This document shows, one piece after another, positions 1-34,137 of a DNA stretch of 52,937 nt. A program made the position numbers and the translations under genes. This DNA is from a virus (taxonomy: Duplodnaviria; Caudoviricetes). The notes beneath the pieces were generated by a model that saw only the letters and a list, made by a program, of their open reading frames with translations, did no database searches and had not been told where the DNA came from. The stretch lies in the IMG/VR virus record IMGVR_UViG_3300025652_000098, positions 1 to 52,937 of that record; one strand, written 5' to 3'. Each line of letters begins with the position of its first letter. Positions within the stretch are counted from its first letter, which is position 1.

Positions 1-166
1 CGTTAACAATAGTTGTTTTGCCGGTACCATTGCGGCTGCCATCTCCGCCAAGGTCAACATTGTTGCCCATAACCAGAGTTAGTCCGCTATCGGAGAATCT
101 TACGGCTTGGGTGATATTGCCACAACTCATAAAGTTCTTTATTGTTAGGTCTTTAATAATAATCAT
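1..166 (-). CDS. 46: Recombination endonuclease ATPase subunit (T4 gp46/SbcC/Rad50-like), N-terminal part only, runs off the window
   Basis: Manual translation from ATG at 166: MIIIKDLTIKNFMSCGNITQAVRFSDSGLTLVMGNNVDLGGDGSRNGTGKTTIVN, with the KNFxS motif and Walker A NGTGKTT. Lies downstream of gp47; ATGA overlap with the HNH stop. Confidence 0.92.
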   Translation of the reverse strand, partial: MIIIKDLTIKNFMSCGNITQAVRFSDSGLTLVMGNNVDLGGDGSRNGTGKTTIVN

Positions 167-990
167 TTGTCAAAGTTTCTCATAAGGTTTTCTTTCCAAG
201 GTAACATTCTTAGATTTTCTATTGATGATGCTTCGGCAATACTGATTCCCTTGCTGAAGCATTCGGTGACTGGCTTAATATGATCTAGTTGCCATCCATT
301 TTCTACTCCCATACGAGTTCTGGTGTGGTTGTCTGGATTGATGACATCTATATTATTATTATACACTATATTACTCATCTTGTAAACCATTTTCTTATAG
401 TCTTTATATTCATCTAGGTCATAATCGGAGGGATATCTTTCGCGGTATAGAACTGGACCTTGATCTTCGCCATATTTTTCTATATAGTATTCTACAGTAT
501 TTGTATACCGCTGTCTCTCGGCCATCTTAGTATACTTTTCTAGTCCAACCTCGTCTCCGAACCGTTCACAATAACCTACTAATGTGTTTCGGTCGGATCT
601 TTTCTGTTTTCCAGCATCCCAGATCCTCTTGCCTTCCACTTCGCCATGGCGCAATATATAGGTTTCTTCGTTCTGAATCGATAGTTTGTTTCTTTTTTCC
701 CATGCTGTATTGGCATTATCGCCATACAGTAGAATATAATGCTCTAATGAGTTTCTCACAACACTGCCAATGGCTGATAGGTTGTTGACATAATCATGGA
801 CACCATTCCGAATCATAAGCGGAATGGTGTCATTTATTGTTCTTATAGATAATGGTGATTTTGTTCTGTTGAATACATAGTCTCCGTGGTATTCAACTAG
901 TTGACGTAATCCTTCGTATTGATCCGGACTGACCGAATCAATCTTTTGTCGGATTGATTTTCTATTTAAGTATTCATCTATAATCTTCAT
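163..990 (-). CDS. Putative free-standing HNH homing endonuclease with (R/K)(H/F/Y)G repeats
   Basis: C-terminal WQLDHIKP...ENLRMLPWKENLMR fits the HNH fold. Internal repeats RHGEVEG/RFGDEVG/KYGEDQG. Separates the gp47 and gp46 subunit genes. Confidence 0.75.
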   Translation of the reverse strand: MKIIDEYLNRKSIRQKIDSVSPDQYEGLRQLVEYHGDYVFNRTKSPLSIRTINDTIPLMIRNGVHDYVNNLSAIGSVVRNSLEHYILLYGDNANTAWEKRNKLSIQNEETYILRHGEVEGKRIWDAGKQKRSDRNTLVGYCERFGDEVGLEKYTKMAERQRYTNTVEYYIEKYGEDQGPVLYRERYPSDYDLDEYKDYKKMVYKMSNIVYNNNIDVINPDNHTRTRMGVENGWQLDHIKPVTECFSKGISIAEASSIENLRMLPWKENLMRNFDK

Positions 991-12200: not shown

Positions 12201-12776
12201 AGAACTAACATCATTGATACATATGTTCTTCTTAGAAGTTACGACACTGAGTTCAGAACATGGGCAGCATATGATGGTAGATCATTTACTCAGCCAGCTG
12301 CTCCGACAGTTAATGGACTTAGTAAATTGTTTACTAGTCTGTCCACCAAGAAAACAATAAGTGACCAGATAATTTATAGACCTGTCAAGTATAAAATACT
12401 ATTTGGAGATTTGGCGTCATCTGAGTTACAGGCAAACTTCAAGATTACAAAAACAGTAAATAGTACATTGAGTGATACAGAAATCAAACAAACAGTAGTA
12501 CAACTAATAAATGAATATTTTAGTATTGACAACTGGGACTTTGGCGAGACATTTTATTTTACTGAACTTGCGTCATACGTTCATAACAACTTGATAGGGC
12601 AAATAAGTCAGATTAATATTGTTCCAATTGACAACAGATTTGGTTCAACGCTTTATGAGATTAATTCACAAAGTGACGAACTATTCCTGCCAGTTCTAAC
12701 ATCTGCTAATGTCATTGTGGAATCAAGTAACAACGCTAATCTAACTACTATAACATCAAACTCCGGAGTTAATTAA
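9231..12776 (+). CDS. 6: Baseplate wedge subunit gp6 (baseplate J-like), extended
   Basis: DFDTIR..M..Y, LIELMAFLG..L.FRADL...ENYL.TAERRES, IVFGDG.F..IP, AQDRMVTADDY. Follows gp25. Confidence 0.9.
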   Translation: MAQGARQSSLFAAEDFSVVYESFSQANFQAYDFDTIRSAMVDYVRANYPEDFNDWISSSEFVSLIELMAFLGHNLAFRADLASRENYLSTAERRESALRIAEFLGYEPTRNVVADGYLKINSIKTSERLYDAEGSSLANKDIFFEDVTNPDTYQDFLTIMNSIFTTSNQFGTPFAKFNQSGVVNEVYKTSTANNSVVESFNSTISGQSLGFELYSVYYNQNVNVIEERTPEPNKSIDILYKNDNSGFTSPNTGFFMGFKQGTLNFQDFNVDTGLANLVLDVTGTNIANGNIWVQTIGLDGTISTNWTLVDRQYGTNAIYNSVSNNQRDIFTVSSREDDQISIVFGDGSFANIPRGIIRVWYRTGANLNYVINPNNMSSITKNFRYTGIDGNEYTATINLGLKETVSNASIRESLKSIKDNAGRFYSAQDRMVTADDYSLFPLTVSENVSKIKSINRVHSGHSRFRDFYDPTATYSDASMYMDDGYLYKDDATVRSLIGLPSSLTSEQIFNRHVAPLLNDPELTNFYFHRQFYGTNISLDGAVPGLYDAYQHYSNTTGLINFYNVNGSIDDVYRWNQITSGNSSSTGYITLNGVVQNFGTAAAAPLDKLSENGLVEFITSPFVEGYISRIELVNQGSGYTSAPTISIDGIGTGATAEATLTGDSISSISVTAAGSEYNSATNITITGGGGSGGVAKVYVTSADTKWVKIVSLGNNGLGEDSASGIPTGITLDSRGSVALGGVVPTGARIKRIVPTYSMDTTTAVKAEIKNAIDNRNSFGLRYDIPTRGWALVASGDLPGNSIASTDVSSWSRQFEGDITAGSLDQSWIIRFDYSSTDWEILVRKTRFVFGSDTTVRFNNLNFEETFSSATSKPRRDNLEVLDINNVSSSDYTPLGKKYKFNVSGYYKYSDGYTDNHKVKVTLADPDNDNYPDTPDAFQQVVRDQTINLGTITENGYDYTVRAATGTNTGGREAIHTRYNRIADLNQVIDPSRTNIIDTYVLLRSYDTEFRTWAAYDGRSFTQPAAPTVNGLSKLFTSLSTKKTISDQIIYRPVKYKILFGDLASSELQANFKITKTVNSTLSDTEIKQTVVQLINEYFSIDNWDFGETFYFTELASYVHNNLIGQISQINIVPIDNRFGSTLYEINSQSDELFLPVLTSANVIVESSNNANLTTITSNSGVN

Positions 12777-15700
12777 TGAGCCAGAACTATCAAGCGAATC
12801 CTACTGATGCCCCACTAATCACACGACCAGGCGAAAGTAAGGAAAGATTGGGTACGACAAATGTTACGGGACTATTGCCTGACATTTTCAGAACTCATAT
12901 AAACAAAAAGTTTCTGAACAGTACGCTAGAACAATTACTATCCAGCGGCAGTTTACAGGCAATAAATTCGCTTGTTGGTTCAAACAACGGCTATAGAAAA
13001 GCGTCGGACATATACGACAGTAGCAATAGATTTGCGGACAACTATCAGTTTACTCCTTCGTTGGTTAATAAAAATGACAACAACGAGATTACGGATGTGC
13101 TTTCTTATGATGATTTTATATCAGCATTGGAATTCAACGGCGTTGATGTAAACAACCACAACAATATCTTAAATGAAAATGGTTATACTCTTAGACTGCC
13201 GATCAACTACGATATGTTTATCAACTATCACAAATACTTTTGGGCACTCAATACTGTGCCTGTATGCGAACTTGATTATGGATCAGGACCTCTAGCAGAG
13301 GCGCTCCTGATTGATGATATTGATGGACTTCTGCTTGGCTCAACATACACTACTCCTACTTTAGCTAACGGCAAGACACTAACATTAGAAAATGGTATGC
13401 GTGTTAAGTTCATTGGTGATAATGTATCTGGCGTAAACTATGCCAAAGATATAACCTACATTGTAGACAACGTTGGTCAACCAAGTGGCATCAAGCTCAC
13501 GGAACAATATGATGCCACTGGCACAAAAACATGGATCAATAAAACAATCTACAACTACAGCGATCCTATCAGAGATTATGTAGTAGAGCCTAGATTTGCT
13601 CCCGAGCAGAGCGCATGGTCGAGAACTAATCTATGGGTAAAAGACAGCGTAGTTATATCTGCCTGTGATTATAATGATTTAGATTCCAGCGACTACGCAA
13701 TTGAAACAGCACGAGCGGTCAGACCTATTATTGAATTCTTTGCTGATTGTGAGAAGTTTGACTTCGGTACAGAACACTTAATGAATGTGTCACACGCATT
13801 TGAGAACATCGTTGCTCCTGGTACGGATATTATAGGCGCTACCAATTTCAATCTTGCTTCGCATCTAGCAACAACTATATGGTCATTGACTGGGTTCGAC
13901 AAGGGTGATAAAGTATACGTTGATTCAGACGGTGAACTTACATACTGGGAATGTGCGCAAACCCACAACGATGCCAAGAACCCTACTTTCTACATGAATA
14001 GTGAATATTGGAAACAGATCGTTGCTAAAACAGTGGTAGACGGCGACACTATATTGTTCATATCTAGCACCGATGTAGCATATAATAATACTATTCGTAC
14101 AGCAGTCGTTGATGGCACTGGACTGATTACGGCATTAACGCCGTTACACGACAGCGGAACATTAACCCCTGGTGACAAGATTGTTGTGACAGTTGGTTAC
14201 AACGAAGTGTTCGGTGATGAATATCCAAATGATATATGGAGTGGCAGTGAATGGTACTGGGATAACACTACATGGGTATACGGACAACAAAAAGACTATC
14301 GCAGTGAAGGAATGTTATTTCAGGCATACGATATAGATTTGAATAAATTAGATGACGCCGCTGTTTATCCAAACAGCAGTTTTGCCGGTGATCCAATCTT
14401 TGATTACAGCAAGAGTACATCGTCAATCTATGATTTTGCGCTTGGCTTTAAGCCAAAGTATGCCGAGTATGGCAACAACCCAGGTTTTGAATTTACATTG
14501 GGCAGTGGCAGTATAAGATACGCATACAACAAAGTCAATACAAATGTTAACTTATCAAACTCAAGTGTATCAAATGAATTTGAAATTGCCGGCTTCTATT
14601 ACTTCAAGAACATCAATACTGGCAAATTTACAAATAACTGGACTGAAGTACGTGGCGGACAGCCGGTAAGAAGACACTACCAGAATATCTTCGGTACCCC
14701 TAGTGACTCAATGATTGTCGATCTTGGCACGAACGATGTCCATAATTACGACAGCTTTCGTGTGTTGAGTAAAGGTAGCGAACTAGAATTCCATACACAC
14801 AGTAATCAAAATTCTGTCACTACATTCAACAGAGTGAACGGAACTAATCCGGTGTTGTTTATGGCAAGAAACAAGACTTATACATTCAAGACTGTATTTG
14901 ATAGTGATGACCTACAATTTAAGGATGTCTCTGGCAATAATATTCCTGGACTTACTCGCAGCCCAGCTATTGATAATGAGTTCACGATATCTCTTGATGG
15001 AACTGTTACCGATGCTCTTATAAAATATACTCTTCCCGGAGTAGATACAGGATGGATCAGTCTGTCCGATATTAAAGAATACAATGTTGATGTGACTATT
15101 AGAAATGACAGTGGCGACACTGTTCTGCCAGAGACTGCTTATGTTATCTCGGACAATCACTTAACCATCACGCATGATTTTGCTGCTGATGATGTGGTTG
15201 ATGTTACCTGGCACACTGATGGCAAATTAACTAGCTCCGCACAGGGTTCTTTTTTACCTGCTGATACTCATATTCTTAATCCACAGAACGAGCTTGTGAC
15301 AACAGTAGAATATAGTGACCTACAGCACCATATCAAAAGTCAGATGACTTCTATTCCTGGCTTTAGTGACAGCTTTTTTGGTACAAACAACTATACAGCA
15401 TTACCGATGTTGAACCAATTTGGCGGCACGATTAGGCAGCAGGCGTTTAGTACAGAGTTACTAACCCAAACACTCAGCAACACTGATTCTAATCCATTCA
15501 GTAGTCTACGGTTTGTGTCACAGCGATATAATAGATTTAAGTCACAATTTACTCAAAAAGTAAAACAGCTACACAACACAACAGATACTAGTATTCCAGT
15601 ATATGAGTTGGTTGATCGTGCTCTAAGAGAAATGAATCTAGGCAAGAATCGCAACAGTGATTTTTCTCAAAGTGACATGGCATTTTATAATGGCTATGAA

Positions 15701-18700
15701 AGTGTAGATGTAAACTGGTATGATGGCGACAGTAATGTATTCTCATTGCCACAAACAATCAACACATTCGATGACACAGTTAACCATGTTCAGTTATGGC
15801 TAAAAGATGTTGATGGCAATGGCGTTGCTCGTTGGAGAGCATTGATCAAGGACATCGATTACACACTAACAAACTATAATGTGACAATTAATACATCAGT
15901 GACCTTTGATGGTGATAGTAGAGCATACGCCCACATTCGTTGGTATCCACAAAATAGCAGCAGCTTTATCCCACCAAGCGCAGCGAAGATGGGTCTGGTA
16001 CGACCTACTAAACTAAGCCAGTTATCTAATTTTTATATTGATGCTGGATATATCACTGGTCAGGATGACTTTGTTGCTCCTACTGTTGGCACATACACAG
16101 ATGCGCTTCAGTTACATGACGGCAGTATTCATGTTAGAATGGGCACAGAACTATATAACAGAAATAGTTCAGAATTTAATATCGTTGACGCCGCTATCTG
16201 GGAACTTGATACCAGAATAGAAAACAATCTATCAGATGCCCTTAACACGGTAGTTGATTATAAAACAATAATGCCTACAGCACATCGCAGCACCAGTTAT
16301 TCTTGGGATGACATGTCCAACGCTATGCGTGATGACTTCAATAGATGGAAAACTAGAAATAGTGTTACCGTACTAAACTCCGCGTCTTATTACGATGCCG
16401 GCGATAAGTTTACTTGGAACTACAGTAGTGTAGGACCAGGCATTGGCGGCTGGAAAGGCGTGTACACATACTACTTTAATACTGATAGACCACACACTCA
16501 TCCATGGGAGATGTTTGGCTACAACACACAACCAACATGGTGGATAGTATATTATGACTGGACAGATGTCAATAAGAAAGCAGCACTGATCACAGCATTG
16601 AAAACTGGACACTATAACAATCCAGCAGATACACCGAAATATAGTATAGATTACGCATACACAAACTATGATTGGGATACTAACACACTAGTTGATATCA
16701 CTAATGTATTGCTTGATCCTGTTGCGGCAGCCGTTGTTACTGCTCCTGTAAGTGTTGAAGCATCAAAAGACTTTGTATTTGGAGATTTAGGTCCAATCGA
16801 ATCATCATGGAGAAATAGTAGCGAGTATAAAATTAACTTGTTTAGTACACTAATGAAATTACAGCCATTGTGGACTATCAATACATATTTCAGAAGTCTT
16901 ACCAGAAGCATAATTTCGAATCCTGATATAGATACTGTACAGCATTACTTCAAAGACACAAAGAACTTAGGAAATAATAAGAACGCAAACTTCACATATT
17001 TGCCGTTCGCTGACAACATTCTTAGTACTATTACTGTAACAAATGGCGGCACTTATGCGACCGCGCCAGTATTGACAGTATTCAGTAACTTTGGTGATGA
17101 CGCAACTGTTACCGCCCATGTTAATAACGGCACAATGGCAGCAGTATCAATCGACAATCCAGGTGGCAACTTCACGGGAAGACCGACTATCGTAACAAGC
17201 GAAGGCAATGCGACATTCAATGTTACTACGATTGCTGGAGCAACAAGATACTTCGGCGGCATGGGTAATGCTATAGTTGAATTTGCCAAATATAATAACA
17301 CACCGGTTGACACATTGGTTGAAAGATTTAATAATATGGGATATTCTCCTATTGTTAAGGCTTCTGGCTTTGTCAACAACGATCAAAACTTTATATTGGA
17401 AAGTAGCCACGATAAGGGTCGTGTTTATTATCCAGCAGACAGTCATACAACAATTCTTTACACAAGTCAACCAAAAGATGAAAAATTCTTTAGTTCGGTA
17501 AAAATTACGAAATTAGCACAGGGCTTTTCTGTATCAGGAATGGACAATGTAGGACAGACATTTAGTTATTATGCTCCTATAACTACTTCTAGCAAGATTG
17601 CGGTTGACATTAATAATAAACTGTATTACAATTACAGTAAATACGACACCACGGCTACTCAATTGGCTTATAGTAGTGTGTTAGACGACACACAGGCAGT
17701 TTATAATTTCATTCTAGGCTACGAGAAATATCTATTGGCACAGGGTTGGAAAACAGCCGCGTGGGCAGCAGAGGCACAGAAATTTGTTGAATGGAATGCT
17801 ACAGCAGCAGCGGGCGATTATGTATTCGCTAAGCCAGATACCTCTAGACTAGAGATAACTGAGCCTACGTTGGGATATTATGACAGCCTATCAACAAAAT
17901 ATGATGGCGCATACAATCTGGTAGATGCTGATGGAAAATTAATCTCCAATGATAAGGTGCTAATCAGTAGAAATATTGAAACCAGCACTGGTATTAACAC
18001 GGTAATGGAAAGAAAAGACAACGACACAATCATCCATGGTATAAGATTCTACACAGTAGAATTAGAGCACGTTATCGTATTCGACAACGAAAGTTTGTTT
18101 AATGATGTAGTTTATCAGCCAGCGATGGGTAACCTGCGAGATCGTATTACTTGGAGAGGCACTAGAACAAAAGACTGGAACGGCAAACTATATGCTCCTG
18201 GCTTCGTAGTTACTGGCGACAGAATTGTTAATAACTTCGACACGGTAGCAAGAGAACTAGACCAGTATTATGGACCTGGCAATACATTGTCAAATCAACA
18301 AATGCTTGACGTAGCCCGCTTTAATGTGGGATACAATCGTCCAGCATGGGCAGATAGTCTGACATTAGATGACGACACAGTGTGGAATTTTGTTAAAGGT
18401 ACATACAAGTATAGTGGCACAGAGAATGCTCTTAACGCATTACTGCGCACAACTGCGTTATATGATACCGTTGCTGATGTCACCCTACACGAAGATTGGG
18501 CAATTAGAACTGCTGATTATGGCGATACACGTTCGAATGAAACATTGGAATTTGTATTAACCCGTGACTTAGTTAAAACAAACCCTCAGCCGATTAGATT
18601 TACAGATGGAATTCGCAATGACGTTCTGACTGACTTTGTGGTTGATGTGGATTCAAACAGTAATCTATTGGTCACCGGTACGGCAGGAAATAATTTCCAA

Positions 18701-21700
18701 ACACGAGCACCGAAACAATACAATAATACTACGTCAACAACCTTTGCTGATTTGACTCTTGTAGAGAATGACTTTAGTGACGCAGGCTTGCCACTACTTA
18801 CTGAGGCAGACTATCGTGTACTAAACAGAGATGATTTTGTTCAATTCCCGACAGAAGTAAAAGATGCGTATGACTTCTCTGGCGAATGGCAGTCTATAGG
18901 ACAATGGGATAACAAAACATCCTATAAGTTCGGCGACAAAGTGATTTATCAAGGCAGCGTATTCCAGATGGTTGACTCTTCTGGAGCAACAGGAATAACA
19001 AGACCAAATAATCCTATTGACGTTGTTGGTACCGCGGTATTGCCGATCATCAGTAAAGCCGGCGGCACATTCATTATAGGCGAATCTTCGGGAACAGCCA
19101 CGACAATCAATATCGTGAATACAACAACGACTACAAATTATAATCCTATAGCCATATCTGGAACCGAAGTTAATCCCGTGCTTGCTCAGAACACTACGTT
19201 GGTCATCGCTTCTGATGACAATGAGTTGGTAACCGTGACTTTCGCTAATATTTCTGATGTTATCGTGTATGATTCGCCTACCTCAACAGGTGACGATGTA
19301 GTTAATCCCGTTGTATCAACGCCAGGCGGCACACTCATCGTAGACGGAACAACGATAACGTTTAATGACATAGATAATAACAATATCAATGCCGAATCAG
19401 CATTGCTGGATGTTATCAATGGTTCATTAACAGTAGCACGCATAAACGCAATCGAGGCACTAAGATTGGTATATCCTTCTGGTACATGGGGCGCATTCCT
19501 TGCTTCTTACTTTGCTACTAGTGTTGCTGGATTGGATATTACTTTCTTGTTGACTGAGCGTGGAACACCAGCCTATGAGGCAGAAATCGACGCATTGATT
19601 ACCAATGATGTTAATATTATTAATAGCTTACAAGGAACTGTATATAGTCCTACACTTGTGATTGCTGGAACAGAAACAGTTGCTCCGCAAGATAGTACAG
19701 CGGCACAAACAGATATGGAAGCTGGGACATATATAGATGATGTATCGATTTGGCTTGCTGCTAATCTTACGACTGTCTTTAGTTCTAGCACAGTAGTCGC
19801 ATCACAATCAACTAACAGAGTGTATAATCTTGCTGCTATCATTCAGAAAATTACAGCAGCGGCTATTCCTAATATTGTTGCGAGTAACAGCAGCAATCAA
19901 TTGAAAATAACTAAAACAAATGTGGACACTTCTACTGCCGCGACACTAATCATAGGCGAGGGTACATTGAATACCACACTTGGCTTTCCTATTGTTGGCG
20001 AAACAGTTGTGAGTACAGGTATCGCTGTGCCGACTGCGGGTATTATCGACTTAACAAGTATAGTTTCTCAAATAAACACCGCGGTAATACCGGGCATTAG
20101 TGCGCAGGCATCTTTGAACAATACCCTAACAATATCAAGTAATTCTACACAGGTCGTAATCGATGCTTCGAGCACTGCGTTGACCGCGTTGGGAATTGTT
20201 TCAGGAACAATTCTAGCAACATCTAACGTATCGTCAACTAGTTCAACCAACGACATTGATGACATTGTTAGTCTAATCAACGCAGAAGGATTAAGTGGCA
20301 TTTTAGCAGCCAATTCCAATAACAGATTAAAAATTACTAGCACTGCTAGTACATTATATATTGGTCCAGGCACGATTAACAGTGTGGTTGGTTTACAATC
20401 CAATACATACACAGCGTCTCAGACCGTTGTTAGCAATACATTCCAGGCTATTCGTTCTGAGAATGGCGACGAGATTCAAGTATTCTTAGAGTTGGAAAAT
20501 GATCCAGCCGTGTTTAGTATCTGGGTAGCAGACGATAGTAGTCTTGATGGGCTAGGCAACTTTGGCTATGATGTTCATCAGTCGATGGACTTCGGCATGT
20601 ATGTTTCACGAGCATGTGCTGGTATTACAGAGGCAGACAACGCCGAGATTACTGTGTCTCTTGCCTCTGATGTAACTAATAACAAAGGAAACAGTCTTCA
20701 CAACCTCACAGTCGGAGACTATGTTCTAATTACAGGAAGTAATACTACTCCGAAAATTGACGGTATACACAAGGTAGTCGAGATCGATGCGAACAATAAA
20801 AGAAGATTCTTCATTGATGAGTTTATCGAAAAAGAAGGCAACGTGGGCAATATTTATCCACTGAGAAGTGTCCGTTTCGACACGATTGATAGCCTGTTGT
20901 CTGAGTATAACTCATTCACAACAGTAGACGGACTAAGCATTCCGAAATATAACTTCGCAGGATTCAGACAGAATAATAGTCTTCGTCCAATCTACGCATT
21001 CGTTAACTCTGATGACCTTGGCAGACCAGCAGTATATCGCTGGACTGGCAGATTTGGAATGACTGATGGCAATACTTACGGCGATTGGGTAAAAGTACGA
21101 GTAACATACGACCAGGCAAGAAATGACCTGATTGAAAATGTTAAGATATTCGACGCAGAGAACCAAACGTATATCAATAACATTGAAATCTTTGACCCAT
21201 TCAAAGGAATCATTCCAGGATTTGCTGAGAGAGAAATAGATTATAAATCTACCAATGACATTGCTATCTATAACTTCAATAATGCTAGCGGCAGTATTGT
21301 AACGGATAACGCATGGAAAGATTCCCATGTTGATGAGCGCTGGTGGGATCTTAGATCCGCTGTTTATCTGAACTATGAGCAGGGAAATATTGACTATAAG
21401 AGATCACATTGGGGTAGATTGTTTGATGGCGCAAGTATAGACATTTATGAATGGACACGTAGTCCTTCATTGCCAGAAGAATGGGAAACTCTTGTAACAA
21501 ATGGCGCTGTTGTGGATGGTAAAACAGCATCTGGGGAAGCGTACAGTTATGAACTAAATAATGAGACCATATATCAGTGGACTGAGTCTGTATATTACAA
21601 TCCAGACAAGAACCGCACTGAAACAACATATTACTTCTGGGTTAAAAATAAAACAACAACTGCTAATAATCGTAACTACAACGTATCACAGTTGAGAGAA

Positions 21701-23074
21701 TTGTTGACAAATCCGTCTTCGTTCGATATTTCTTGGGCAGCAGCAGCAGGAGCGGATGAGTTAATTCTTTCGAATGTGTATAACTTTACTAGTGACAATT
21801 CCGTTGTTCAAGTAAATCAGAAATATGAAAGCGAGACGCTGACTAATAGTGAGTATGTGTTACTTTCAGAAAAAGAGAATAAAAAACTAATACCGGAATA
21901 TCTACATATCAAAATGCGTGATAGTCTTGTTGGCTATAATCGTTATAGTGAAAGATACACATATACTTCGTATGATGTGGTAACAACATACAGTGTTTCT
22001 GATGTGGTACTAAGTGGCAATGATTATTATATAAGTCTACGTGATGTGAATACTGGCAACACACCTAATGCTACTGAGGAATTCTGGAGAAGAATATACG
22101 ATTATGAATTACCAGCAGAAACTCAAGCAACTGACATTGATGTATTGTCTCCTATTCTGTTGCCTAACATTAGGCTTCATCCTTATAACAGATTTGGTCA
22201 CTTGACCAGACCTGCTCAGAGTCTTATCAGAAATAAATCAGAAGCAAGACAGAACTTCATTGAAGCATTTAATTCTATAACTGCTGATATTGTTATGGTA
22301 TCAGAATATCCTAATCTAGAAGATTATATTGGACAAACTTTCGTCGAGGGTGAAGTCACATATAACCCGAGAGATTTCTGGAATTATGTTGACTATACAA
22401 AACGCACATACAACACATCCGGCGATATGGATTATATGTTTAATACTGACACTGTTGTCAACTATCGTGTGGACTCGTTGACAGATATTAGAGAAGAAAA
22501 TATATCTGGAACATACCAGAATGGTGATTTGGTTTACGTGAGTAGCATTATTCATAGTGACGGATTGACCAGACCTGCTATATATCGCAGACTTGATAAC
22601 GACTGGGTATTAGAATGGAAGAAGAACGGAACAATCGAATTTAGTGAAGAACTATGGAACGTAAATAAGTATGGACATGGGTTTGATGTAACTGGGTTTG
22701 ACTCTGTTGGGTTTGATTCCGATCCAAGTAACATATTATATCATTTGATTGAGCAAGTTAGAAACAAAATGTTCTTGACAAAACCAGAATTATATAATAA
22801 ACTATGGTTTAGTTGGTTACATCAAGCGGTGACAGAAAACACCACTAGTGACTTTGCGTTCAAGACAACATATACTTCCATGGATATTTCGTATCCGTTG
22901 AATACTACCGCGAAACTTTATCAGCCACAGAACACAGATGTGTTGGAAGGGTTCTTTAACGATATCAAACCATTCCATACTAAGCTGAGAAAGATTAACG
23001 AAAACCCAACACACGACGAAACATCTAAATTAGAGATTAGCGAGACATATTCGATAGGAATAGTTACTCCTTGA
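12776..23074 (+). CDS. Giant (3432 aa) gp7-like baseplate wedge/structural protein with inserted CBM5/12-like and nested repeat domains
   Basis: Coupled to gp6 by TAATG. N-terminal LLPDIF, internal GTENALNALL and C-terminal IKPFHTK resemble gp7/P2 gpI motifs. GFD repeats near the C-terminus. Confidence 0.65.
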   Translation: MSQNYQANPTDAPLITRPGESKERLGTTNVTGLLPDIFRTHINKKFLNSTLEQLLSSGSLQAINSLVGSNNGYRKASDIYDSSNRFADNYQFTPSLVNKNDNNEITDVLSYDDFISALEFNGVDVNNHNNILNENGYTLRLPINYDMFINYHKYFWALNTVPVCELDYGSGPLAEALLIDDIDGLLLGSTYTTPTLANGKTLTLENGMRVKFIGDNVSGVNYAKDITYIVDNVGQPSGIKLTEQYDATGTKTWINKTIYNYSDPIRDYVVEPRFAPEQSAWSRTNLWVKDSVVISACDYNDLDSSDYAIETARAVRPIIEFFADCEKFDFGTEHLMNVSHAFENIVAPGTDIIGATNFNLASHLATTIWSLTGFDKGDKVYVDSDGELTYWECAQTHNDAKNPTFYMNSEYWKQIVAKTVVDGDTILFISSTDVAYNNTIRTAVVDGTGLITALTPLHDSGTLTPGDKIVVTVGYNEVFGDEYPNDIWSGSEWYWDNTTWVYGQQKDYRSEGMLFQAYDIDLNKLDDAAVYPNSSFAGDPIFDYSKSTSSIYDFALGFKPKYAEYGNNPGFEFTLGSGSIRYAYNKVNTNVNLSNSSVSNEFEIAGFYYFKNINTGKFTNNWTEVRGGQPVRRHYQNIFGTPSDSMIVDLGTNDVHNYDSFRVLSKGSELEFHTHSNQNSVTTFNRVNGTNPVLFMARNKTYTFKTVFDSDDLQFKDVSGNNIPGLTRSPAIDNEFTISLDGTVTDALIKYTLPGVDTGWISLSDIKEYNVDVTIRNDSGDTVLPETAYVISDNHLTITHDFAADDVVDVTWHTDGKLTSSAQGSFLPADTHILNPQNELVTTVEYSDLQHHIKSQMTSIPGFSDSFFGTNNYTALPMLNQFGGTIRQQAFSTELLTQTLSNTDSNPFSSLRFVSQRYNRFKSQFTQKVKQLHNTTDTSIPVYELVDRALREMNLGKNRNSDFSQSDMAFYNGYESVDVNWYDGDSNVFSLPQTINTFDDTVNHVQLWLKDVDGNGVARWRALIKDIDYTLTNYNVTINTSVTFDGDSRAYAHIRWYPQNSSSFIPPSAAKMGLVRPTKLSQLSNFYIDAGYITGQDDFVAPTVGTYTDALQLHDGSIHVRMGTELYNRNSSEFNIVDAAIWELDTRIENNLSDALNTVVDYKTIMPTAHRSTSYSWDDMSNAMRDDFNRWKTRNSVTVLNSASYYDAGDKFTWNYSSVGPGIGGWKGVYTYYFNTDRPHTHPWEMFGYNTQPTWWIVYYDWTDVNKKAALITALKTGHYNNPADTPKYSIDYAYTNYDWDTNTLVDITNVLLDPVAAAVVTAPVSVEASKDFVFGDLGPIESSWRNSSEYKINLFSTLMKLQPLWTINTYFRSLTRSIISNPDIDTVQHYFKDTKNLGNNKNANFTYLPFADNILSTITVTNGGTYATAPVLTVFSNFGDDATVTAHVNNGTMAAVSIDNPGGNFTGRPTIVTSEGNATFNVTTIAGATRYFGGMGNAIVEFAKYNNTPVDTLVERFNNMGYSPIVKASGFVNNDQNFILESSHDKGRVYYPADSHTTILYTSQPKDEKFFSSVKITKLAQGFSVSGMDNVGQTFSYYAPITTSSKIAVDINNKLYYNYSKYDTTATQLAYSSVLDDTQAVYNFILGYEKYLLAQGWKTAAWAAEAQKFVEWNATAAAGDYVFAKPDTSRLEITEPTLGYYDSLSTKYDGAYNLVDADGKLISNDKVLISRNIETSTGINTVMERKDNDTIIHGIRFYTVELEHVIVFDNESLFNDVVYQPAMGNLRDRITWRGTRTKDWNGKLYAPGFVVTGDRIVNNFDTVARELDQYYGPGNTLSNQQMLDVARFNVGYNRPAWADSLTLDDDTVWNFVKGTYKYSGTENALNALLRTTALYDTVADVTLHEDWAIRTADYGDTRSNETLEFVLTRDLVKTNPQPIRFTDGIRNDVLTDFVVDVDSNSNLLVTGTAGNNFQTRAPKQYNNTTSTTFADLTLVENDFSDAGLPLLTEADYRVLNRDDFVQFPTEVKDAYDFSGEWQSIGQWDNKTSYKFGDKVIYQGSVFQMVDSSGATGITRPNNPIDVVGTAVLPIISKAGGTFIIGESSGTATTINIVNTTTTTNYNPIAISGTEVNPVLAQNTTLVIASDDNELVTVTFANISDVIVYDSPTSTGDDVVNPVVSTPGGTLIVDGTTITFNDIDNNNINAESALLDVINGSLTVARINAIEALRLVYPSGTWGAFLASYFATSVAGLDITFLLTERGTPAYEAEIDALITNDVNIINSLQGTVYSPTLVIAGTETVAPQDSTAAQTDMEAGTYIDDVSIWLAANLTTVFSSSTVVASQSTNRVYNLAAIIQKITAAAIPNIVASNSSNQLKITKTNVDTSTAATLIIGEGTLNTTLGFPIVGETVVSTGIAVPTAGIIDLTSIVSQINTAVIPGISAQASLNNTLTISSNSTQVVIDASSTALTALGIVSGTILATSNVSSTSSTNDIDDIVSLINAEGLSGILAANSNNRLKITSTASTLYIGPGTINSVVGLQSNTYTASQTVVSNTFQAIRSENGDEIQVFLELENDPAVFSIWVADDSSLDGLGNFGYDVHQSMDFGMYVSRACAGITEADNAEITVSLASDVTNNKGNSLHNLTVGDYVLITGSNTTPKIDGIHKVVEIDANNKRRFFIDEFIEKEGNVGNIYPLRSVRFDTIDSLLSEYNSFTTVDGLSIPKYNFAGFRQNNSLRPIYAFVNSDDLGRPAVYRWTGRFGMTDGNTYGDWVKVRVTYDQARNDLIENVKIFDAENQTYINNIEIFDPFKGIIPGFAEREIDYKSTNDIAIYNFNNASGSIVTDNAWKDSHVDERWWDLRSAVYLNYEQGNIDYKRSHWGRLFDGASIDIYEWTRSPSLPEEWETLVTNGAVVDGKTASGEAYSYELNNETIYQWTESVYYNPDKNRTETTYYFWVKNKTTTANNRNYNVSQLRELLTNPSSFDISWAAAAGADELILSNVYNFTSDNSVVQVNQKYESETLTNSEYVLLSEKENKKLIPEYLHIKMRDSLVGYNRYSERYTYTSYDVVTTYSVSDVVLSGNDYYISLRDVNTGNTPNATEEFWRRIYDYELPAETQATDIDVLSPILLPNIRLHPYNRFGHLTRPAQSLIRNKSEARQNFIEAFNSITADIVMVSEYPNLEDYIGQTFVEGEVTYNPRDFWNYVDYTKRTYNTSGDMDYMFNTDTVVNYRVDSLTDIREENISGTYQNGDLVYVSSIIHSDGLTRPAIYRRLDNDWVLEWKKNGTIEFSEELWNVNKYGHGFDVTGFDSVGFDSDPSNILYHLIEQVRNKMFLTKPELYNKLWFSWLHQAVTENTTSDFAFKTTYTSMDISYPLNTTAKLYQPQNTDVLEGFFNDIKPFHTKLRKINENPTHDETSKLEISETYSIGIVTP

Positions 23075-23735: not shown

Positions 23736-24650
23736 ATGCCATATAACATAAACTATTCAGATGCGAGTAAGCCTAATATCATCATCGCAGACGGCACACT
23801 AGATACAAGCACAAGTCTTGTGTTGCTTGGTAAAAATTCTTCAAACATCGGAGAATATTCTAACGAAAATCTTCTACATCTTTTGGAGAATTTCTCTTCT
23901 GGAGTTGAGCCCGTTAATCCAGTAGACGGTCAGCAATGGTACGACAGCTCTACGAATCAGGTAAAAATTCACGATACTGGAAAATGGTATGTGATTGGGT
24001 TTACAGGAAACACAAGAATCGAAGTAAGAAATCGTTTAGACACACAGGACATTCTTCATAAAACAATCGAAAATATTGTTGATGATGTGATTGTAACAAT
24101 CACGGTTGATGACACTACCTCATGGACGCCTGCTGCTAGTGAATTTCTAGAGGATGGTGTAACTCGGCTTGATACACAGTTCCCCACAATCCAGGCTGGT
24201 ATCAATATGAATACCACTAATAACTATAAGTTCAGAGGCACCGCTACTAGTGCTGAGTACGCCGATCTCGCGGAACGTTATGCCGCTGATAAGGTATTAG
24301 AACCAGGAACAGTTGTAAAGATTGGTGGTTCAGCAGAAATAACACAAACACTACAACAAAACGATACTGATGTATTTGGTGTAATCTCTACCGCGCCAGC
24401 ATTTGAAATGAATAGCTCAGCTGGTACAGATGACAGTCATCCATATGTTGCGCTTGCTGGACGTGTTCCTTGTAAGGTAGTCGGCAGAATACTCAAGGGA
24501 GAAAGACTAGTTACTAGTAATGTTCCTGGTCATGCTAAGTCAGCCTATATGACAGATGTGCTAGATTACAGAGCCATAATCGGTAGAGCACTAGAGGATC
24601 ATCTAGTCGAGAGCACCGGAACAATAGAGATAGTCGTAGGGACAAAGTAA
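23736..24650 (+). CDS. Short tail-fibre-like protein with C-terminal intramolecular chaperone (Peptidase G2-like) domain
   Basis: N-terminal LLGKN...NENLLHLLENF...P.NPVDGQQWYD. C-terminal YADLAERY...PGTVV.IGG...GVISTAPAF.MN...VALAGRVPCKVVG...LVTS..PGHA. Confidence 0.7.
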   Translation: MPYNINYSDASKPNIIIADGTLDTSTSLVLLGKNSSNIGEYSNENLLHLLENFSSGVEPVNPVDGQQWYDSSTNQVKIHDTGKWYVIGFTGNTRIEVRNRLDTQDILHKTIENIVDDVIVTITVDDTTSWTPAASEFLEDGVTRLDTQFPTIQAGINMNTTNNYKFRGTATSAEYADLAERYAADKVLEPGTVVKIGGSAEITQTLQQNDTDVFGVISTAPAFEMNSSAGTDDSHPYVALAGRVPCKVVGRILKGERLVTSNVPGHAKSAYMTDVLDYRAIIGRALEDHLVESTGTIEIVVGTK

Positions 24651-24652
24651 AA

Positions 24653-26863
24653 ATGGCTGTCAACCAAGGTAATACAGTAAACGCTAGTGAGTACAATACT
24701 ATCGCAACACTTGTGAATAAAGTGTTTGGCGACAACTATTCTGCTGCTACGGTTCAGGATGGCGCAGCTATCCATGTTATCGCTGACGGAACAACTGGTA
24801 TATTGGATGTCAATTTAGTCGTGGATGACACCACTGGACTAGTACCTGGACAACAAGCCACTGGTGCTGGGTACAGAAGTGCTCAGTCAATTGTGAGTGT
24901 AGATAGCTCTACACAAATCACGATGTCCGCAATTGCCGACGCTGTTGTCGAGCGTAGTTATGTATCTGGCGGGTCTAGCGGGTTCAGCCTACCAACTTTG
25001 ACAGTGAACGACACTACAGATTTACGTCAAGGCATGGTTGTTACAGGCACTGGATATTCTAGTGGTCAAACCATTCTTCACATAATTAACGGAACAACTC
25101 TTACTATGTCGGATTTGACTGATGTGGCTATTTCAGCTACCTATGTCTCTGGCGGTCTTCAAACCACTACATTAATCGTTGATGATACTACTGGAATTAT
25201 TCCAGGAATGGGCGTCACGGGTGATGGATACACCGACGGACAAACAGTCAGTGCGGTGATTGATGGAACGACACTTACGATATCCGCGTTGCCGGACGCT
25301 GTGCGCTTGGTTTCATATGTTGGTGGCGGGTTTATTAATACCACTCTGACAGTGGGCGAGACTGCGGGAATGACAGTGGGAATGATGGTATCCGGAACTG
25401 GATACACTAGCGGACAGACTATTGTTGGTGTAATCAATGAAACAACTCTTATAATGTCTGCGGTAGCAGATGTGCTGCCAGATGGGGTATTGTCATTCCG
25501 CGCCGCACCCACTGGCGTATTAGACTTTCATAGTCTGATCTCTGGTACATTGAGCTTTGGACCAGCGCCAGAAAATAGACTTTATTTTCTTCCTGCTGTA
25601 GCATTCAGTAGAAAAGATGTTCACAAATTTGGTTGGGGCGCTACTAATATAGACGCTGCTGTTAAGCCGACCATAACAATAACTGGCGCAGTTGGCAACG
25701 GCAGCACGATAACATATACTACTGATGTGGACCACGAATTTGCCAACAACACACATGTTGATATAACTGGCATTGTTTCAGATGGATCAGATCCATCAAG
25801 TCTTAATGCGACGAAAGATATTATTATTGCCATACCTACGCCAACTACATTTACTGTTGAAAGCATTGTAACAGACACGTATATCTCTGGCGGCGCAGTA
25901 TCCGCACATATAGTAATAACCGCTGATAGATTGGTTAAGTTACTTGACCGTACAAACGTAATGATAGATCATTGTGATATTGACGACACTATATTGATAT
26001 TTGCCGAGCCTGAAAATAGAACAACCATTTTGACTAGAACACTTGTTCGAGCAGAAGATTTGAATGTAATCGAATCTAAAATAAACAATTCCATTATTGC
26101 TAATAATACACATGCGTCGGTAGATGTAGAAAACGTAACTACTCTGCCTGAAATTACTGAGATTATTGAACGTACTACTCCGTGGGAAGACAAGCTAGAA
26201 TGTGAATGGACATGGACCTTCTCGGATTATAATGCCGCTCGTTATTTCTTTAATAGTGGTGGACAGTTACGTCTCAGTATGGATATAGCAGGCGGGTCAA
26301 CGATAGGATATTATAACTGGGCTGACGCGATATTCGACCTAGGAACGTTAAATTTTAACTGGGATACAGTATCTCAGGCAACAAATAGAGATCCGGGAAC
26401 ATCATATGGACGAGGATTCTATAATCTGACAGAAAACTATGGCGACGGATCAGATACCAACAGCGGCGAAGGGTTACTATTCGTAGGAGCAGCGTCCAAC
26501 GTAGGCGGATATGGCTATGGATATACTGGCAGTAGTATTAGTAATTACAGCGGCGGATATAGTGGCGGATATAGTGGCGGCTACAGCGGCGGATATAGTG
26601 GCGGCTACGGGTATGGATACAGTAACTACAGTACTCGTCGCATTAAATTATACGGAAAATATTCTGGTTCAGGTGAAGTGATTCACTTTAAGATAGTTCT
26701 GGACGATAGTGTGTATGATTCGCCTGTGGATGGCATAATCTCTACGAACTTTGAACTGTATATGCCTACTATAATCACATCCCCTAATGATTCTACTGTT
26801 ATCTTTGATGTGTCACCAGCTCCGACATTTATAATAACGAATGATTTCTCAGACGATATATAA
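24653..26863 (+). CDS. Tail-associated structural protein with four nested beta-domain repeats and a Gly/Tyr/Ser loop
   Basis: Four ~58-aa repeats (TLxVDDTTGxxxGMxVTGxGYxxGQT), FSDYNAARYFFNSGGQLR and (YSGG)5. Confidence 0.6.
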   Translation: MAVNQGNTVNASEYNTIATLVNKVFGDNYSAATVQDGAAIHVIADGTTGILDVNLVVDDTTGLVPGQQATGAGYRSAQSIVSVDSSTQITMSAIADAVVERSYVSGGSSGFSLPTLTVNDTTDLRQGMVVTGTGYSSGQTILHIINGTTLTMSDLTDVAISATYVSGGLQTTTLIVDDTTGIIPGMGVTGDGYTDGQTVSAVIDGTTLTISALPDAVRLVSYVGGGFINTTLTVGETAGMTVGMMVSGTGYTSGQTIVGVINETTLIMSAVADVLPDGVLSFRAAPTGVLDFHSLISGTLSFGPAPENRLYFLPAVAFSRKDVHKFGWGATNIDAAVKPTITITGAVGNGSTITYTTDVDHEFANNTHVDITGIVSDGSDPSSLNATKDIIIAIPTPTTFTVESIVTDTYISGGAVSAHIVITADRLVKLLDRTNVMIDHCDIDDTILIFAEPENRTTILTRTLVRAEDLNVIESKINNSIIANNTHASVDVENVTTLPEITEIIERTTPWEDKLECEWTWTFSDYNAARYFFNSGGQLRLSMDIAGGSTIGYYNWADAIFDLGTLNFNWDTVSQATNRDPGTSYGRGFYNLTENYGDGSDTNSGEGLLFVGAASNVGGYGYGYTGSSISNYSGGYSGGYSGGYSGGYSGGYGYGYSNYSTRRIKLYGKYSGSGEVIHFKIVLDDSVYDSPVDGIISTNFELYMPTIITSPNDSTVIFDVSPAPTFIITNDFSDDI
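26546..26605 (+). repeat. Five 12-bp tandem coding repeats, TAYAGYGGCGGM = (YSGG)5
   Basis: tacagcggcgga tatagtggcgga tatagtggcggc tacagcggcgga tatagtggcggc. Confidence 0.95.
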
Positions 26864-31028: not shown

Positions 31029-32597
31029 ATGTCGAACTACGATGATGACGCACGAGATACTCGTGACAAACTGAACTCCTTGTCATCATCCATGTGTATG
31101 GCAAAGTGGTTACAGGTTAGTTTGCATTTGCCACAAGGCAGAACACATAGTTGTTATCATCCGCCAACTCATCCTATTCCACTGGATGAACTCAAGGCAA
31201 ACCCGAACGCTCTTCATAACACCAAGTTCAAGCTAAACGAGCGTAAGCAAATGAAGAACGGCGAACGACCAAGTGGGTGTCAGTACTGCTGGAACGTAGA
31301 AGACGCCAAGGATGCTCCAAAAGAAGGTAGACTTAGTGATAGACACTATCGTTCAAGTGAGTGGTGGGTTAAAGACGCATGGGAAGAGGTAGTTAAACAG
31401 CCCTGGGATCATGATATTAAACCGCGTTACGTTGAGGTAAATTTCAATCAAGCATGTAACCTAAAGTGTAGTTATTGTAGTCCCCACTTGAGCACTGCTT
31501 GGGAAGACGACATTAATGAACACGGCGGCTTCCGATTTGCGGATGGCGGTGGACATAACGATATTGATTACTTGCGTGATACCGGCATGATGCCACTTGA
31601 GGTAGCACGAAAGGATAATCCATATATCGACGCATTCTGGAAATGGTTCCCTGATACATACAAAGACTTGAAAGTATTTCGTATGACCGGTGGTGAGCCG
31701 TTGATGGACAAGAATACATTTAAGGTTCTTGATTACGTCAATGAGAATCCTAACTCATCTATCGATCTGAGTATTACTTCTAATATGTCACCACCAACTC
31801 CTGCTTTAATGGATCGTTTCATCGAAAAGTTAAAAAAGATTGAAGAGGTAAGAGTATGGGAAGATACAACACGTATCAATCCTCACACTGGCAACAACTG
31901 GTATGTATCCCCAGCATGTAAACATTTTTCATTATTTGTGAGTGTTGACGGCGTAGGCAAGCAGGCGGAATATATGCGAGACGGATTAGACTTTGATACA
32001 ATGTACGAGAATTGTCGCAGAGTTCTTAGAGAAACAAACGGTACTGAGATATCATTCATCAATACGTTCAATTTGTTGAGTATTCCAAACCTGCGTGGAT
32101 TCTTAGACATGATACTAGCACTGCGTGAAGAATTTGGATATGAAAATCAGGAAGATATTATTATCACTCCGCCTGATCATAATGGGTTCAAGCATCCGGA
32201 GTTTGTTCGCAAGAAGCGTCAGCGCATATGGTTTGATATTCCTTATCTTCATTTTCCAGACTGGATGACTATTCAGTTGGCTTCACCCGAGATGTTGGAG
32301 ATAATCGAAGATAATATCGAGTATATGAAAGCAAATATTCTACCAGATGATCTATACGGTCGCAAGTATACGGGCTTCAAAAACTACGAGGTACTGAAAC
32401 TGGAACGAGATTTAGCATGGGCTAAAGAAGGACTAAATATAAGTGAGACAGAATTAAGTAACAAGTTAATTCGGTTCTACGAATATTTCACACAATATGA
32501 TAAACGCAGAAATTTAAATTTTCTAGAAACATTTCCAGAGATGGCAGATTTCTGGAATAAAGCCAAAGAAGAGAAAGAGGCAAAATATGGGTCGTAA
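31029..32597 (+). CDS. Radical SAM protein with N-terminal twitch domain (rSAM1)
   Basis: CNLKCSYC, TGGEP. N-terminal CMAKW...SCYHP...CQYC. Confidence 0.9.
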   Translation: MSNYDDDARDTRDKLNSLSSSMCMAKWLQVSLHLPQGRTHSCYHPPTHPIPLDELKANPNALHNTKFKLNERKQMKNGERPSGCQYCWNVEDAKDAPKEGRLSDRHYRSSEWWVKDAWEEVVKQPWDHDIKPRYVEVNFNQACNLKCSYCSPHLSTAWEDDINEHGGFRFADGGGHNDIDYLRDTGMMPLEVARKDNPYIDAFWKWFPDTYKDLKVFRMTGGEPLMDKNTFKVLDYVNENPNSSIDLSITSNMSPPTPALMDRFIEKLKKIEEVRVWEDTTRINPHTGNNWYVSPACKHFSLFVSVDGVGKQAEYMRDGLDFDTMYENCRRVLRETNGTEISFINTFNLLSIPNLRGFLDMILALREEFGYENQEDIIITPPDHNGFKHPEFVRKKRQRIWFDIPYLHFPDWMTIQLASPEMLEIIEDNIEYMKANILPDDLYGRKYTGFKNYEVLKLERDLAWAKEGLNISETELSNKLIRFYEYFTQYDKRRNLNFLETFPEMADFWNKAKEEKEAKYGS

Positions 32598-34137
32598 GCA
32601 CTCTGAAGGCGAAACCCTTCACAAATACAAAGAACGCATGATTGACAGTGTTAGTAAAAGTTACTGTGCCGCTAAATGGTATAACGCAACGATTTGGTTG
32701 GGACATGGACAAACGACTAGTTGCCATCACCCACCCGGACATTGGATTCCTTTGGATGAACTTAAAGACAACTACACTGCTATCCATAATACATCACACA
32801 AGAAAAAAATGCGAAAAATGATGCAAGAAGGCGAGAGACCTGCTGAGTGTGAATACTGTTGGAAAATAGAAGACCTTGGCAAAGATCACATCAGTGACCG
32901 TGTCTTTAAGACTGAAATTTTCAAAGACGAGGACGTAGCAGCTAGCGCAACTGCCGACTGGCAAGAAGATACCATGTTGCGTACACTTGAAATTTCGTTT
33001 GATCGTGCTTGTAACTTAAAATGCAGTTACTGTAACCCCGCATTCTCTACAGCATGGGTCAAGGATATTAATGACTACGGCGCTTATCAAAATATTCAAA
33101 GTGACGGTCGTGGACACTTTATGGACACTGCTCCATGGGCAGAATCGGCAACAAAGAAGGCCGAGGATAATCCTTATATACAAGCGTTTCACAAATGGTG
33201 GGAAAATGGACTTGCTGACAATTTAGAAGAGATCCGTATTACTGGTGGTGAACCTATTATGCACTCCGGAACATGGAAACTATTTGACTGGTTTAAGCAG
33301 AATCCAACTCGCGGCAGACAGATGCGTTTCGCTATCAACTCTAATCTATCGCCAGAAACCCCCAAGGTACTAGACAAGTTGATTGAGAAGTCGTGGCATG
33401 TTCCTAACTTTGAAATTTATACTAGTATGGAAGCAACAAAGGACCAAGCAGAATACATTCGTGATGGTCTTGATTATGGTAAATGGATGGATAGTATTCA
33501 TCGTGTTCTTCGTGAATCTAACGTAGCTAAGTTACACATGATGATGACAATCAATTCGTTGTGCTTAACAACTATCACTGATTTCATGGACGAAATGCTA
33601 GACTTGCGTGAAGAGTATAAGAATAGAGCGCCAACAATGACACTAAACATTCTACGTTTCCCGTCATTTCAAAGTGCTGCTATTTTGCCTGAACATATCA
33701 AGACATTTTATAAAGATAAACTAGAAGCATGGTTTAATAGTGAACGTCCACAAAAAATGTTAACAGAGGGCGAAATCGCAAGTATTCAACGATTGATTGA
33801 TTATATTGATATTGTTAAAACTCCACACAAGAACACAGCGAATCAAGACAAGCTGTACAATGACTTCAAAGCATTCTTTGTACAATATGATATTCGTCGT
33901 AGTAAAAACTTTTCGGCTACTTTTCCTGGTCTATTGTCAGAATGGTTTGATAGTATCGAAGCAGAAACTCCGTCGGTAGAGCAGATTCTTGGTAAAGAAC
34001 TTGTATTCACCAATTCAGATCGTACCGGAGACCCTGCTACTATTGAATCATATGATGGTGGCGACGACGAACATGAAGCTGTTGGCGGCTGGGATACCGA
34101 GACTGATGCCCTTGGTGGCGTAGTGGTAGAGGATTAA
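32587..34137 (+). CDS. Radical SAM protein with N-terminal twitch domain (rSAM2)
   Basis: CNLKCSYC, TGGEP. N-terminal CAAKW...SCHHP...CEYC. Confidence 0.9.
   Translation: MGRKHSEGETLHKYKERMIDSVSKSYCAAKWYNATIWLGHGQTTSCHHPPGHWIPLDELKDNYTAIHNTSHKKKMRKMMQEGERPAECEYCWKIEDLGKDHISDRVFKTEIFKDEDVAASATADWQEDTMLRTLEISFDRACNLKCSYCNPAFSTAWVKDINDYGAYQNIQSDGRGHFMDTAPWAESATKKAEDNPYIQAFHKWWENGLADNLEEIRITGGEPIMHSGTWKLFDWFKQNPTRGRQMRFAINSNLSPETPKVLDKLIEKSWHVPNFEIYTSMEATKDQAEYIRDGLDYGKWMDSIHRVLRESNVAKLHMMMTINSLCLTTITDFMDEMLDLREEYKNRAPTMTLNILRFPSFQSAAILPEHIKTFYKDKLEAWFNSERPQKMLTEGEIASIQRLIDYIDIVKTPHKNTANQDKLYNDFKAFFVQYDIRRSKNFSATFPGLLSEWFDSIEAETPSVEQILGKELVFTNSDRTGDPATIESYDGGDDEHEAVGGWDTETDALGGVVVED

Follow-up and report, generated by a model that had tools for sequence, protein, structure and literature searches.

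A possible out-and-back stalk of nested beta-barrels in a loop of a phage virion protein

Can a small domain be plugged into a loop of its own kind, level after level, in a phage virion protein? The question is raised by a window of 52,937 nucleotides (the whole stretch of DNA analysed here, from the IMG/VR viral contig IMGVR_UViG_3300025652_000098, 52.9 kb, with an estimated completeness of ~15%), in which an open reading frame at 24653..26863 (+) encodes a protein of 736 amino acids (aa), here P0001. In this protein four long repeat units are followed by four short ones, and an earlier note on positions 24760-25600 (aa 36-316) read this order as four domains nested one within the other. We find that the repeats form an insertion in a loop of a conserved parent protein, and we suggest, with a probability of roughly 0.6, that the insertion folds as an out-and-back stalk in which barrel 4 would sit within barrel 3, barrel 3 within barrel 2 and barrel 2 within barrel 1. 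The nesting is supported by the sequence grammar of the repeats and by matching counts of their strands in two protein families; the three-dimensional topology is a prediction.

Long and short repeats in a loop of the parent protein

Uncultured phages of this group conserve the parent, a virion-module protein of ~380 aa; it belongs to no named family and matched neither a Pfam nor a PHROG family. In P0001 it is split into an N-terminal part (aa 1-33; 24653..24751 (+)), with a helix at 11-24 that appears in both of our structure models at a low predicted local distance difference test score (pLDDT), and a C-terminal part (aa 318-736; 25604..26863 (+)), which carries the motifs HKFGWG, RAEDLN and FFNSGGQLR and aligns with 13 relatives at E <= 1e-3 and with 75 IMG/VR loci. 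Alignment of P0001 with seven relatives (P0063-P0069; 404-427 aa, 44-51% identical) covers aa 1-33 and 318-736, and the ~283 aa between these parts (aa 34-317; 24752..25603 (+)) are wanting in 7/7. Relatives of 365-429 aa pass from the position of aa 33 to HKFGWG through only ~8-35 residues, just as the earlier note would have it in placing the block within a loop of a parent protein. The block is likewise absent from the IMG/VR relatives L004-L074, whose frames measure 253-429 aa in 71/71 loci (4 cut by the contig end); their 34 non-redundant N-termini share the motif YN..VNK.FGD, and ...FGD.Y..A.V runs straight into ..HKFGWG.

These data confirm that aa 34-317 are an insertion in a loop of the parent. 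Since the flanks align in relatives that do without the insert, both ends of the 283-aa block must lie close together. The insert is carried only by P0001, P0002 (97% identical) and P0003 (80% identical), all three with the same layout of four long and four short units; none of the 71 loci holds a barrel at this loop, so that there were no counts to compare among orthologs there.

The long units occupy aa 54-114, 115-172, 173-230 and 231-288. All six pairwise local alignments between them gave 19-30 identities over 44-58 columns, with z scores of 12.9-22.2 (500 shuffles each), in full agreement with the four units of ~58 aa first described. The short units follow at an exact period of 10 aa: VLPDGVLSFR (274-283), AAPTGVLDFH (284-293), SLISGTLSFG (294-303) and PAPENRLYFL (304-313). 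At the DNA level the similarity between repeats is reduced to pieces of 14-26 nucleotides at 74-81% identity, and Tandem Repeats Finder detected no array of the long or short units; the repeats are old at this level.

Strand grammar of the repeats and the proposed nesting

A search of 1.84 billion representative proteins yielded 60 proteins at E <= 1e-3, in which a core of 42 aa occurs 1 to 14 times each. Single cores are bracketed by a strand of the type x[YH][VTN]SGGxxxT in front (b0) and by one of the type PSGxLxF behind (F), and this b0-core-F arrangement surrounds a single core in 14 of the 59 other proteins at the thresholds set here. Several such copies are flanked by AIAIG-type repeats of the host protein, which marks these copies as inserts. 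Tandem-type relatives (e.g., P0014, P0017 and P0020, some with Hint domains) share with P0001 the same core (E 1e-7 to 1e-14 against the hidden Markov model, HMM, of the unit) and the same F, and differ from it in order, which is core-F-core-F with b0 only at the first core.

The order in P0001 is b0-core four times, followed by F four times. A possible strand before core 1 (L0, IHVIADG, aa 40-46; 24770..24790 (+)) is weak, being YVSGG-like by eye only and outside the 10 best b0 matches. Core 1 itself (aa 54-95; 24812..24937 (+)) lies in a unit HMM match at 54-114 (E 4e-33) and has strands at 79-85 and 88-91 in model 1. The b0 before core 2 (SYVSGG, aa 102-107; 24956..24973 (+)) is the best b0 profile match in P0001 (103-111, score 13.4, above the 10.5 that marks the 95th percentile of shuffle maxima), and core 2 (aa 115-156; 24995..25120 (+)) is matched by the unit HMM at 115-172 (E 1e-30), with model 1 strands at 115-118, 129-131, 139-145 and 149-152. 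Core 3 (aa 173-214; 25169..25294 (+); E 2e-30, pLDDT 82-95) is preceded by TYVSGG (aa 163-168; 25139..25156 (+)), which scores 9.7 at 164-172; model 1 makes a strand of 164-167 and model 2 one of 164-166, and the structural matches that cover barrel 3 begin at residue 159/160. Before core 4 (aa 231-272; 25343..25468 (+); E 6e-26, pLDDT 91-97) stands SYVGGG (aa 221-226; 25313..25330 (+)), the fourth best b0 match in P0001 (5.4) and part of a strand at 218-225 in model 2 (pLDDT 82-96); structural matches to barrel 4, which would be the sole barrel contiguous in sequence, begin at 213-218. The linkers after cores 1-3 are thus all of the b0 type, a strand in front of each core that the earlier note had overlooked in its description of the long units.

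To score the short units we used a profile of the post-core strand of the 59 homologs (consensus sTPSGtItFt). The first three are the three best places in the whole of P0001, at 13.7, 9.1 and 8.0, where 300 shuffles gave a 95th percentile of 9.9 for the best score and 3.4 for the fourth best. The first, F4 (25472..25501 (+)), is a strand at 281-283 in model 1 and at 279-283 in model 2 and would close barrel 4. The proposed closing strands of barrels 3 and 2 are F3 (25502..25531 (+)), which is no strand in either model (pLDDT 40-72), and F2 (25532..25561 (+)), with a strand at 299-301 in model 2 (pLDDT ~40). The candidate for barrel 1, F1 (25562..25591 (+)), is weak: it keeps the 10-aa register, scores -1.8 (rank 10) and shares with the profile only P...LxF. 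Three of the four short units originally proposed are therefore clear and the fourth is weak, LxF being present in all four and also in P0003.

In ordinary tandem domains every unit has all of its strands; here cores 1-3 have no adjacent F-type strand, the best score within 22 aa behind them being 0.7, 5.8 and -1.3, as compared with 12.7 behind core 4. The loop between core and F is divided in the same manner, with its first half (xxxD[VA]) on all four cores and its second half ([LA]Px[GN]) on all four F units. Among 50 control cores of other proteins, each with an F of its own and room behind it, none was followed by a second F-like unit within 8-16 aa. The same grammar recurs in a second, unrelated family: b0-core-b0-core-F-F (e.g., DAELLTF then PTNGSTLTF) is the reading of aa 1308-1445 in the giant virion protein P0074 and of P0075, the translation of the locus L089, and P0009 has the same start as the pair in P0074, with its end cut off. 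Late strands therefore number two after two cores in that family and four after four cores in P0001 (three clear b0 and one doubtful, three clear F and one weak); strand complementation would predict just these counts in nested order. The idea that each domain lacks a final strand, supplied on the return path, is upheld in so far as cores 1-3 lack an F, the F strands after core 4 match the cores in number, the second family has two and two and the controls have none; the anti-diagonal contacts that it implies are a prediction, with aa 287-313 undocked in two AlphaFold2 models.

We propose that a short surface loop after aa 33 received the 283-aa insert in the lineage of P0001, and that this insert would consist of four copies of a six-stranded beta-barrel of the type found in the E1 ubiquitin-activating enzyme (FCCH) and in phage I-domains. 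A complete barrel would comprise b0 (YVSGG type), the four-stranded core of 42 aa and the closing F (PxGxLxF type). The outward chain would lay down b0 and core four times, with only barrel 4 closed at once, by F4; returning along the stack, the chain would then contribute F3, F2 and F1 to close barrels 3, 2 and 1. Each of barrels 4, 3 and 2 would in this way lie in the loop that joins core and F of the next lower-numbered barrel, with the contiguous barrel 4 as the tip and the two ends of the stalk meeting at the parent loop. Of this picture, we observe the repeats, the insertion, the grammar of b0, core and F and the equal counts, and from these we infer which strand contacts which barrel. 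Four barrels would make a stalk of roughly 10 nm, which would likely serve, as an appendage on the tail or baseplate, for reach or (weak) adhesion to the host surface.

It had also been claimed that ordinary tandem duplication cannot yield such an order, and that repeated insertion at the same loop is needed. This is not established, as one tandem expansion of b0-core and another of F, with selection keeping their numbers equal, would also give it, and the DNA is too diverged to tell. As a tentative generalisation, to which we give somewhat less credence than to its contrary, phage virion proteins may lengthen their appendages by plugging barrel into loop level after level, with return strands always tracking cores, at 1:1 in single inserts, at 2:2 in the P0074 family and at 4:4 here. 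Searches for further unit-bearing loci gave 10 loci with the A4 alignment and two with the single insert sequence, only single units being found in each; the P0074 stretch matched no locus in IMG/VR, and the A7 search of metagenomes matched one.

Predicted structure and alternative explanations

Two AlphaFold2 models were built, the first of aa 1-345 with an alignment of 40 rows (mean pLDDT 66) and the second of the full length with the alignment A5, made of eight parents and 37 whole unit proteins (mean pLDDT 61). MAFFT misplaced parents or unit homologs in most mixed alignments; in A5 the F strands of the homologs are not aligned on F4, and the remaining stretches of the unit proteins introduce noise. 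Barrels 3 and 4 have a pLDDT of 82-97 in both models, and in model 2 barrel 4 is made of the strand 218-225, four core strands and the strand 279-283 (pLDDT 82-97). Docking of the fragments aa 36-275 and 276-318 with ESMFold2 gave ipSAE values of 0.27 and 0.22 against a mark of 0.32, which counts neither way.

Six solved chains match barrel 4 best, with Z scores of 8.0 to 6.7, among them 8eci_2 (Z 8.0, root-mean-square deviation (rmsd) 4.5, 73 aligned, to the region 217..~288), 9n71_B (Z 7.6), the lambda tail tip 8iyk_J at residues 491-567 (Z 7.2) and the E1 FCCH domain 4p22_B (Z 6.7, rmsd 2.3, 66 aligned, model 217..284 to chain 216..296). Further matches are the P22 I-domain 2m5s (Z 5.6) and the E1 FCCH domain 2v31 (Z 5.1, model 216..297); barrel 3 matches FCCH at Z 5.2 and 4.6. 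All matches have Z <= 8, and because values under 8 may reflect a mere common arrangement, we call the unit an FCCH/I-domain-like small beta-barrel, a label taken from the models, and do not file it under PF16190. Foldseek gave no match in the PDB at E <= 0.001 for either model, a PDB sequence search gave none at E <= 10 for the whole protein and a best E of 0.083 for the core profile, and no Pfam or PHROG family covers the four repeats, where PF16190 is unmatched at E <= 1.

Besides this limit on the fold matches, several observations weigh against the nested stalk. Both models build barrel 3 confidently (pLDDT 82-95) from five strands, none of them an F, and leave F3, F2 and F1 undocked: in model 1 there is no strand in 287-313 (pLDDT 42-72), and in model 2 the pLDDT is below 50 for 287-340, with a sole strand of three residues at 299-301. 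Because the alignment is only three rows deep over aa 287-313 (pLDDT 40-72 across the two models), we regard these undocked strands as weak evidence against nesting. As F1 and L0 fail as F and b0, only three levels of nesting are well marked. An F-like 7-mer (score >= 6) stands behind 59 of 139 homolog cores, as compared with 8.4% of random windows, so that the rule of one F per core may not extend to the more distant families. Finally, in 16 of 59 aligned homolog units a single strand precedes the core, with the F residue aligned on the Y of b0; these proteins are tandem arrays, and the barrel can hence be strung with fewer strands than b0-core-F.

The last points bear on the alternative that survives best, one we consider unlikely while giving it serious weight, in which the insert would be a string of four ordinary tandem barrels, with five strands each or a shared YVSGG linker strand, followed by an independent 10-aa repeat that either folds into a small sheet or serves to lead the chain back to the parent loop. 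The confident five-stranded barrel 3 of AlphaFold2, which leaves 287-313 free, fits such a string, as does the position of the linker-strand Y after cores 1-3, the 11th residue past the last S of the core and the same as L280 in F4; the single inter-core strand of the tandem-type homologs also aligns on b0. The ends of each such barrel are adjacent, so a tandem bouquet could also fit a loop, and two separate tandem expansions would yield the observed order without any special insertion. However, a string of tandem barrels gives no account of why the extra units bear the exact signature of a closing strand, with its buried LxF kept in all four, why additional F units are confined to places where the cores have no F of their own (0/50 controls) or why the second family has two and two. 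Nor does AlphaFold2 predict hairpins or a sheet for 284-313.

It is very unlikely, in our judgement, that the protein forms an oligomer whose chains exchange strands, each of the three extra F strands completing a barrel in an adjacent subunit. Oligomers are common among baseplate and fibre proteins, the gene neighbours of the module include baseplate and fibre genes and the F units match the closing strand; prediction of a monomer would then leave the F strands undocked, as observed. However, the present data, which include no multimer prediction, hold no sign of an oligomer, the matching counts are equally explained within one chain, and connectors of ~5 aa between the F units suit a path along one stack. 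Most improbable of all, the short units would be decayed leftovers of three further barrels with deleted cores and no present structural role, as the degenerate F1 and the age of the repeats at the DNA level might suggest, but this requires three precise core deletions and sits poorly with the exact 10-aa period and the LxF kept in P0003 at 80% overall identity and with the same pattern in P0074 and P0075.

Related systems and the genomic setting

The nested stalk proposed for P0001 has a counterpart in Si3, an insertion in the trigger loop of the beta' subunit (RpoC2) of cyanobacterial RNA polymerase. In the available parts of the paper on its crystal structure, Si3 contains eight domains of the sandwich-barrel hybrid motif (SBHM) that are not in simple tandem order, some being continuous and others assembled from distant parts of the chain (PMC10895346), and the accessible text of a second paper describes six-level recursive insertion (PMC13114784). 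As far as these texts go, Si3 is like P0001 in that copies of one small beta-rich domain in one host loop make an elongated appendage whose two ends return to the loop. The two are set apart by fold label (SBHM as opposed to an FCCH/I-domain-like barrel) and by setting, a cellular enzyme as opposed to a virion protein; furthermore, Si3 is branched and solved, whereas P0001 would be a simple series four deep, known from its grammar. By analogy, P0001 may work like Si3, and we do not file it as a member of Si3.

Smaller-scale likenesses are found in single barrels. The FCCH domain of E1 (PF16190; 4p22, 2v31) is, like the unit of P0001, a small beta-barrel inserted in another domain, but it is a single insert and not the self-nested series proposed here. 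The YxSGG motif of P0001 is one that we take to resemble E1 sequence. Phage barrels, namely the P22 coat I-domain (2m5s), the lambda tail tip (8iyk_J 491-567), the tail-tube insert of Mystique (9n71_B) and the barrel of Bridgette (8eci_2), resemble barrel 4 (Z 5.6-8.0, 69-74 aligned, model 214..293) and are, as in P0001, inserted in or appended to virion proteins; as far as their entry titles and the text available for them show, they are single and contiguous, and none is described as self-nested. In the literature search, which covered main texts, supplements being outside its scope, no paper on self-nested barrels in phage tails was found, and FCCH in phages appeared as a single domain only. 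MreC was considered as a known nested barrel pair, as wide match ranges (117..277 for 66 aligned) hinted at a discontinuous barrel; it was rejected, since in their available portions two MreC papers mention a pair of barrel domains or 'two tandem' barrels and describe no nesting.

If the nested stalk is real, P0001 would hold a compact, four-deep natural case of a domain inserted in itself, in a virion protein with abundant insert-free relatives, which allows a direct comparison of host and insert. Recursive insertion, for which the solved example so far is Si3 of RNA polymerase, would then also build phage surface appendages and could serve generally for building and tuning the antennae of tails and baseplates, a use that the phage literature has yet to describe. 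Such proteins would further offer a natural series of nesting depths for studying the inside-out folding of nested domains, and may inform the design of rigid out-and-back stalks. For annotation, the halves of nested domains would lie far apart and defeat profile searches, and for structure prediction P0001 is a case that AlphaFold2 did not resolve. The weight of these points is limited, as the build is already known in kind and its topology is here predicted from grammar.

A tblastn search of 50,697 deposited phage records gave no hit for the parent family, as compared with 75 IMG/VR loci that hold it; within the collections searched the family is therefore confined to uncultured phages. Its C-terminal region has a pLDDT of 67-90 for aa 500-736 in the full-length model, except for a low-complexity stretch of Gly, Tyr and Ser (GGYSGGYS..., aa ~617-657), where a tandem repeat of 12/36 nucleotides lies at 26546-26622 of the window, length and sequence vary among relatives and pLDDT is below 50. 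A second insert (aa 338-418; 25664..25906 (+)), absent from P0063-P0069, appears by sequence to be one contiguous FCCH-like barrel and ends in TYISGG; its match to PF16190 E1_FCCH (aa 350-417) is weak, at 15.6 bits against a cut-off of 29.5, and its YISGGAVSA is the third best b0 profile match in P0001 (9.4). As it begins ~20 residues past the first insert, two neighbouring parent loops have each taken up barrels.

The module also occurs in other hosts, among them the tailspike-like P0010 (pectate-lyase fold), the YadA-head-like P0008 and giant baseplate proteins. In three proteins (P0004, P0014 and P0017), Hint/intein-like domains (PF01079, PF05203) and Gly-rich tails come after 2-5 copies of the barrel in tandem. 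In P0074 (aa 1446-1560; also in P0075, from L089), right after the pair with two cores and two F strands, there is a third core-like barrel (NVLNLNSVTGIKAGS...), which a different small domain (TKYTIQSVGTTDFTLVGA...) apparently interrupts and which PAGTQLTF apparently closes; if true, this would be nesting of unlike domains within one giant virion protein.

P0001 is the last gene of a baseplate block that comprises a hub-like gene, a gp6-like wedge gene, a giant virion protein, a 198-aa protein and a fibre-like protein. The wedge gene matches phrog_10646 (E 9e-272), and its best named tblastn relatives are in jumbo phages such as SCTP-2, CBB and Atu_ph07 (37-42% identity). The giant protein (3432 aa; window 12776-23074) matches phrog_10938 (E 2e-229), and its relatives P0009 and P0074, from other phages, bear the nested-type barrel pair. 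Directly upstream of P0001, the 304-aa fibre-like protein (window 23736-24650) matches tail-fibre PHROGs and, weakly and below the cut-off, the Peptidase_G2 IMC autoproteolytic domain (E 2.8e-4). One possibility is a fibre or spike that carries an intramolecular chaperone. The protein is kept in 70 of 71 related loci with up to 69% identity. The neighbours (giant protein, p198, p304, p115 and p302) are present, with gene order conserved, in 58-70 of the 71 loci. Downstream of P0001 the next genes have no structural matches; they are followed, beyond the structural block, by two adjacent genes of 522 and 516 aa (window 31029-34137) with matches to radical-SAM PHROGs.

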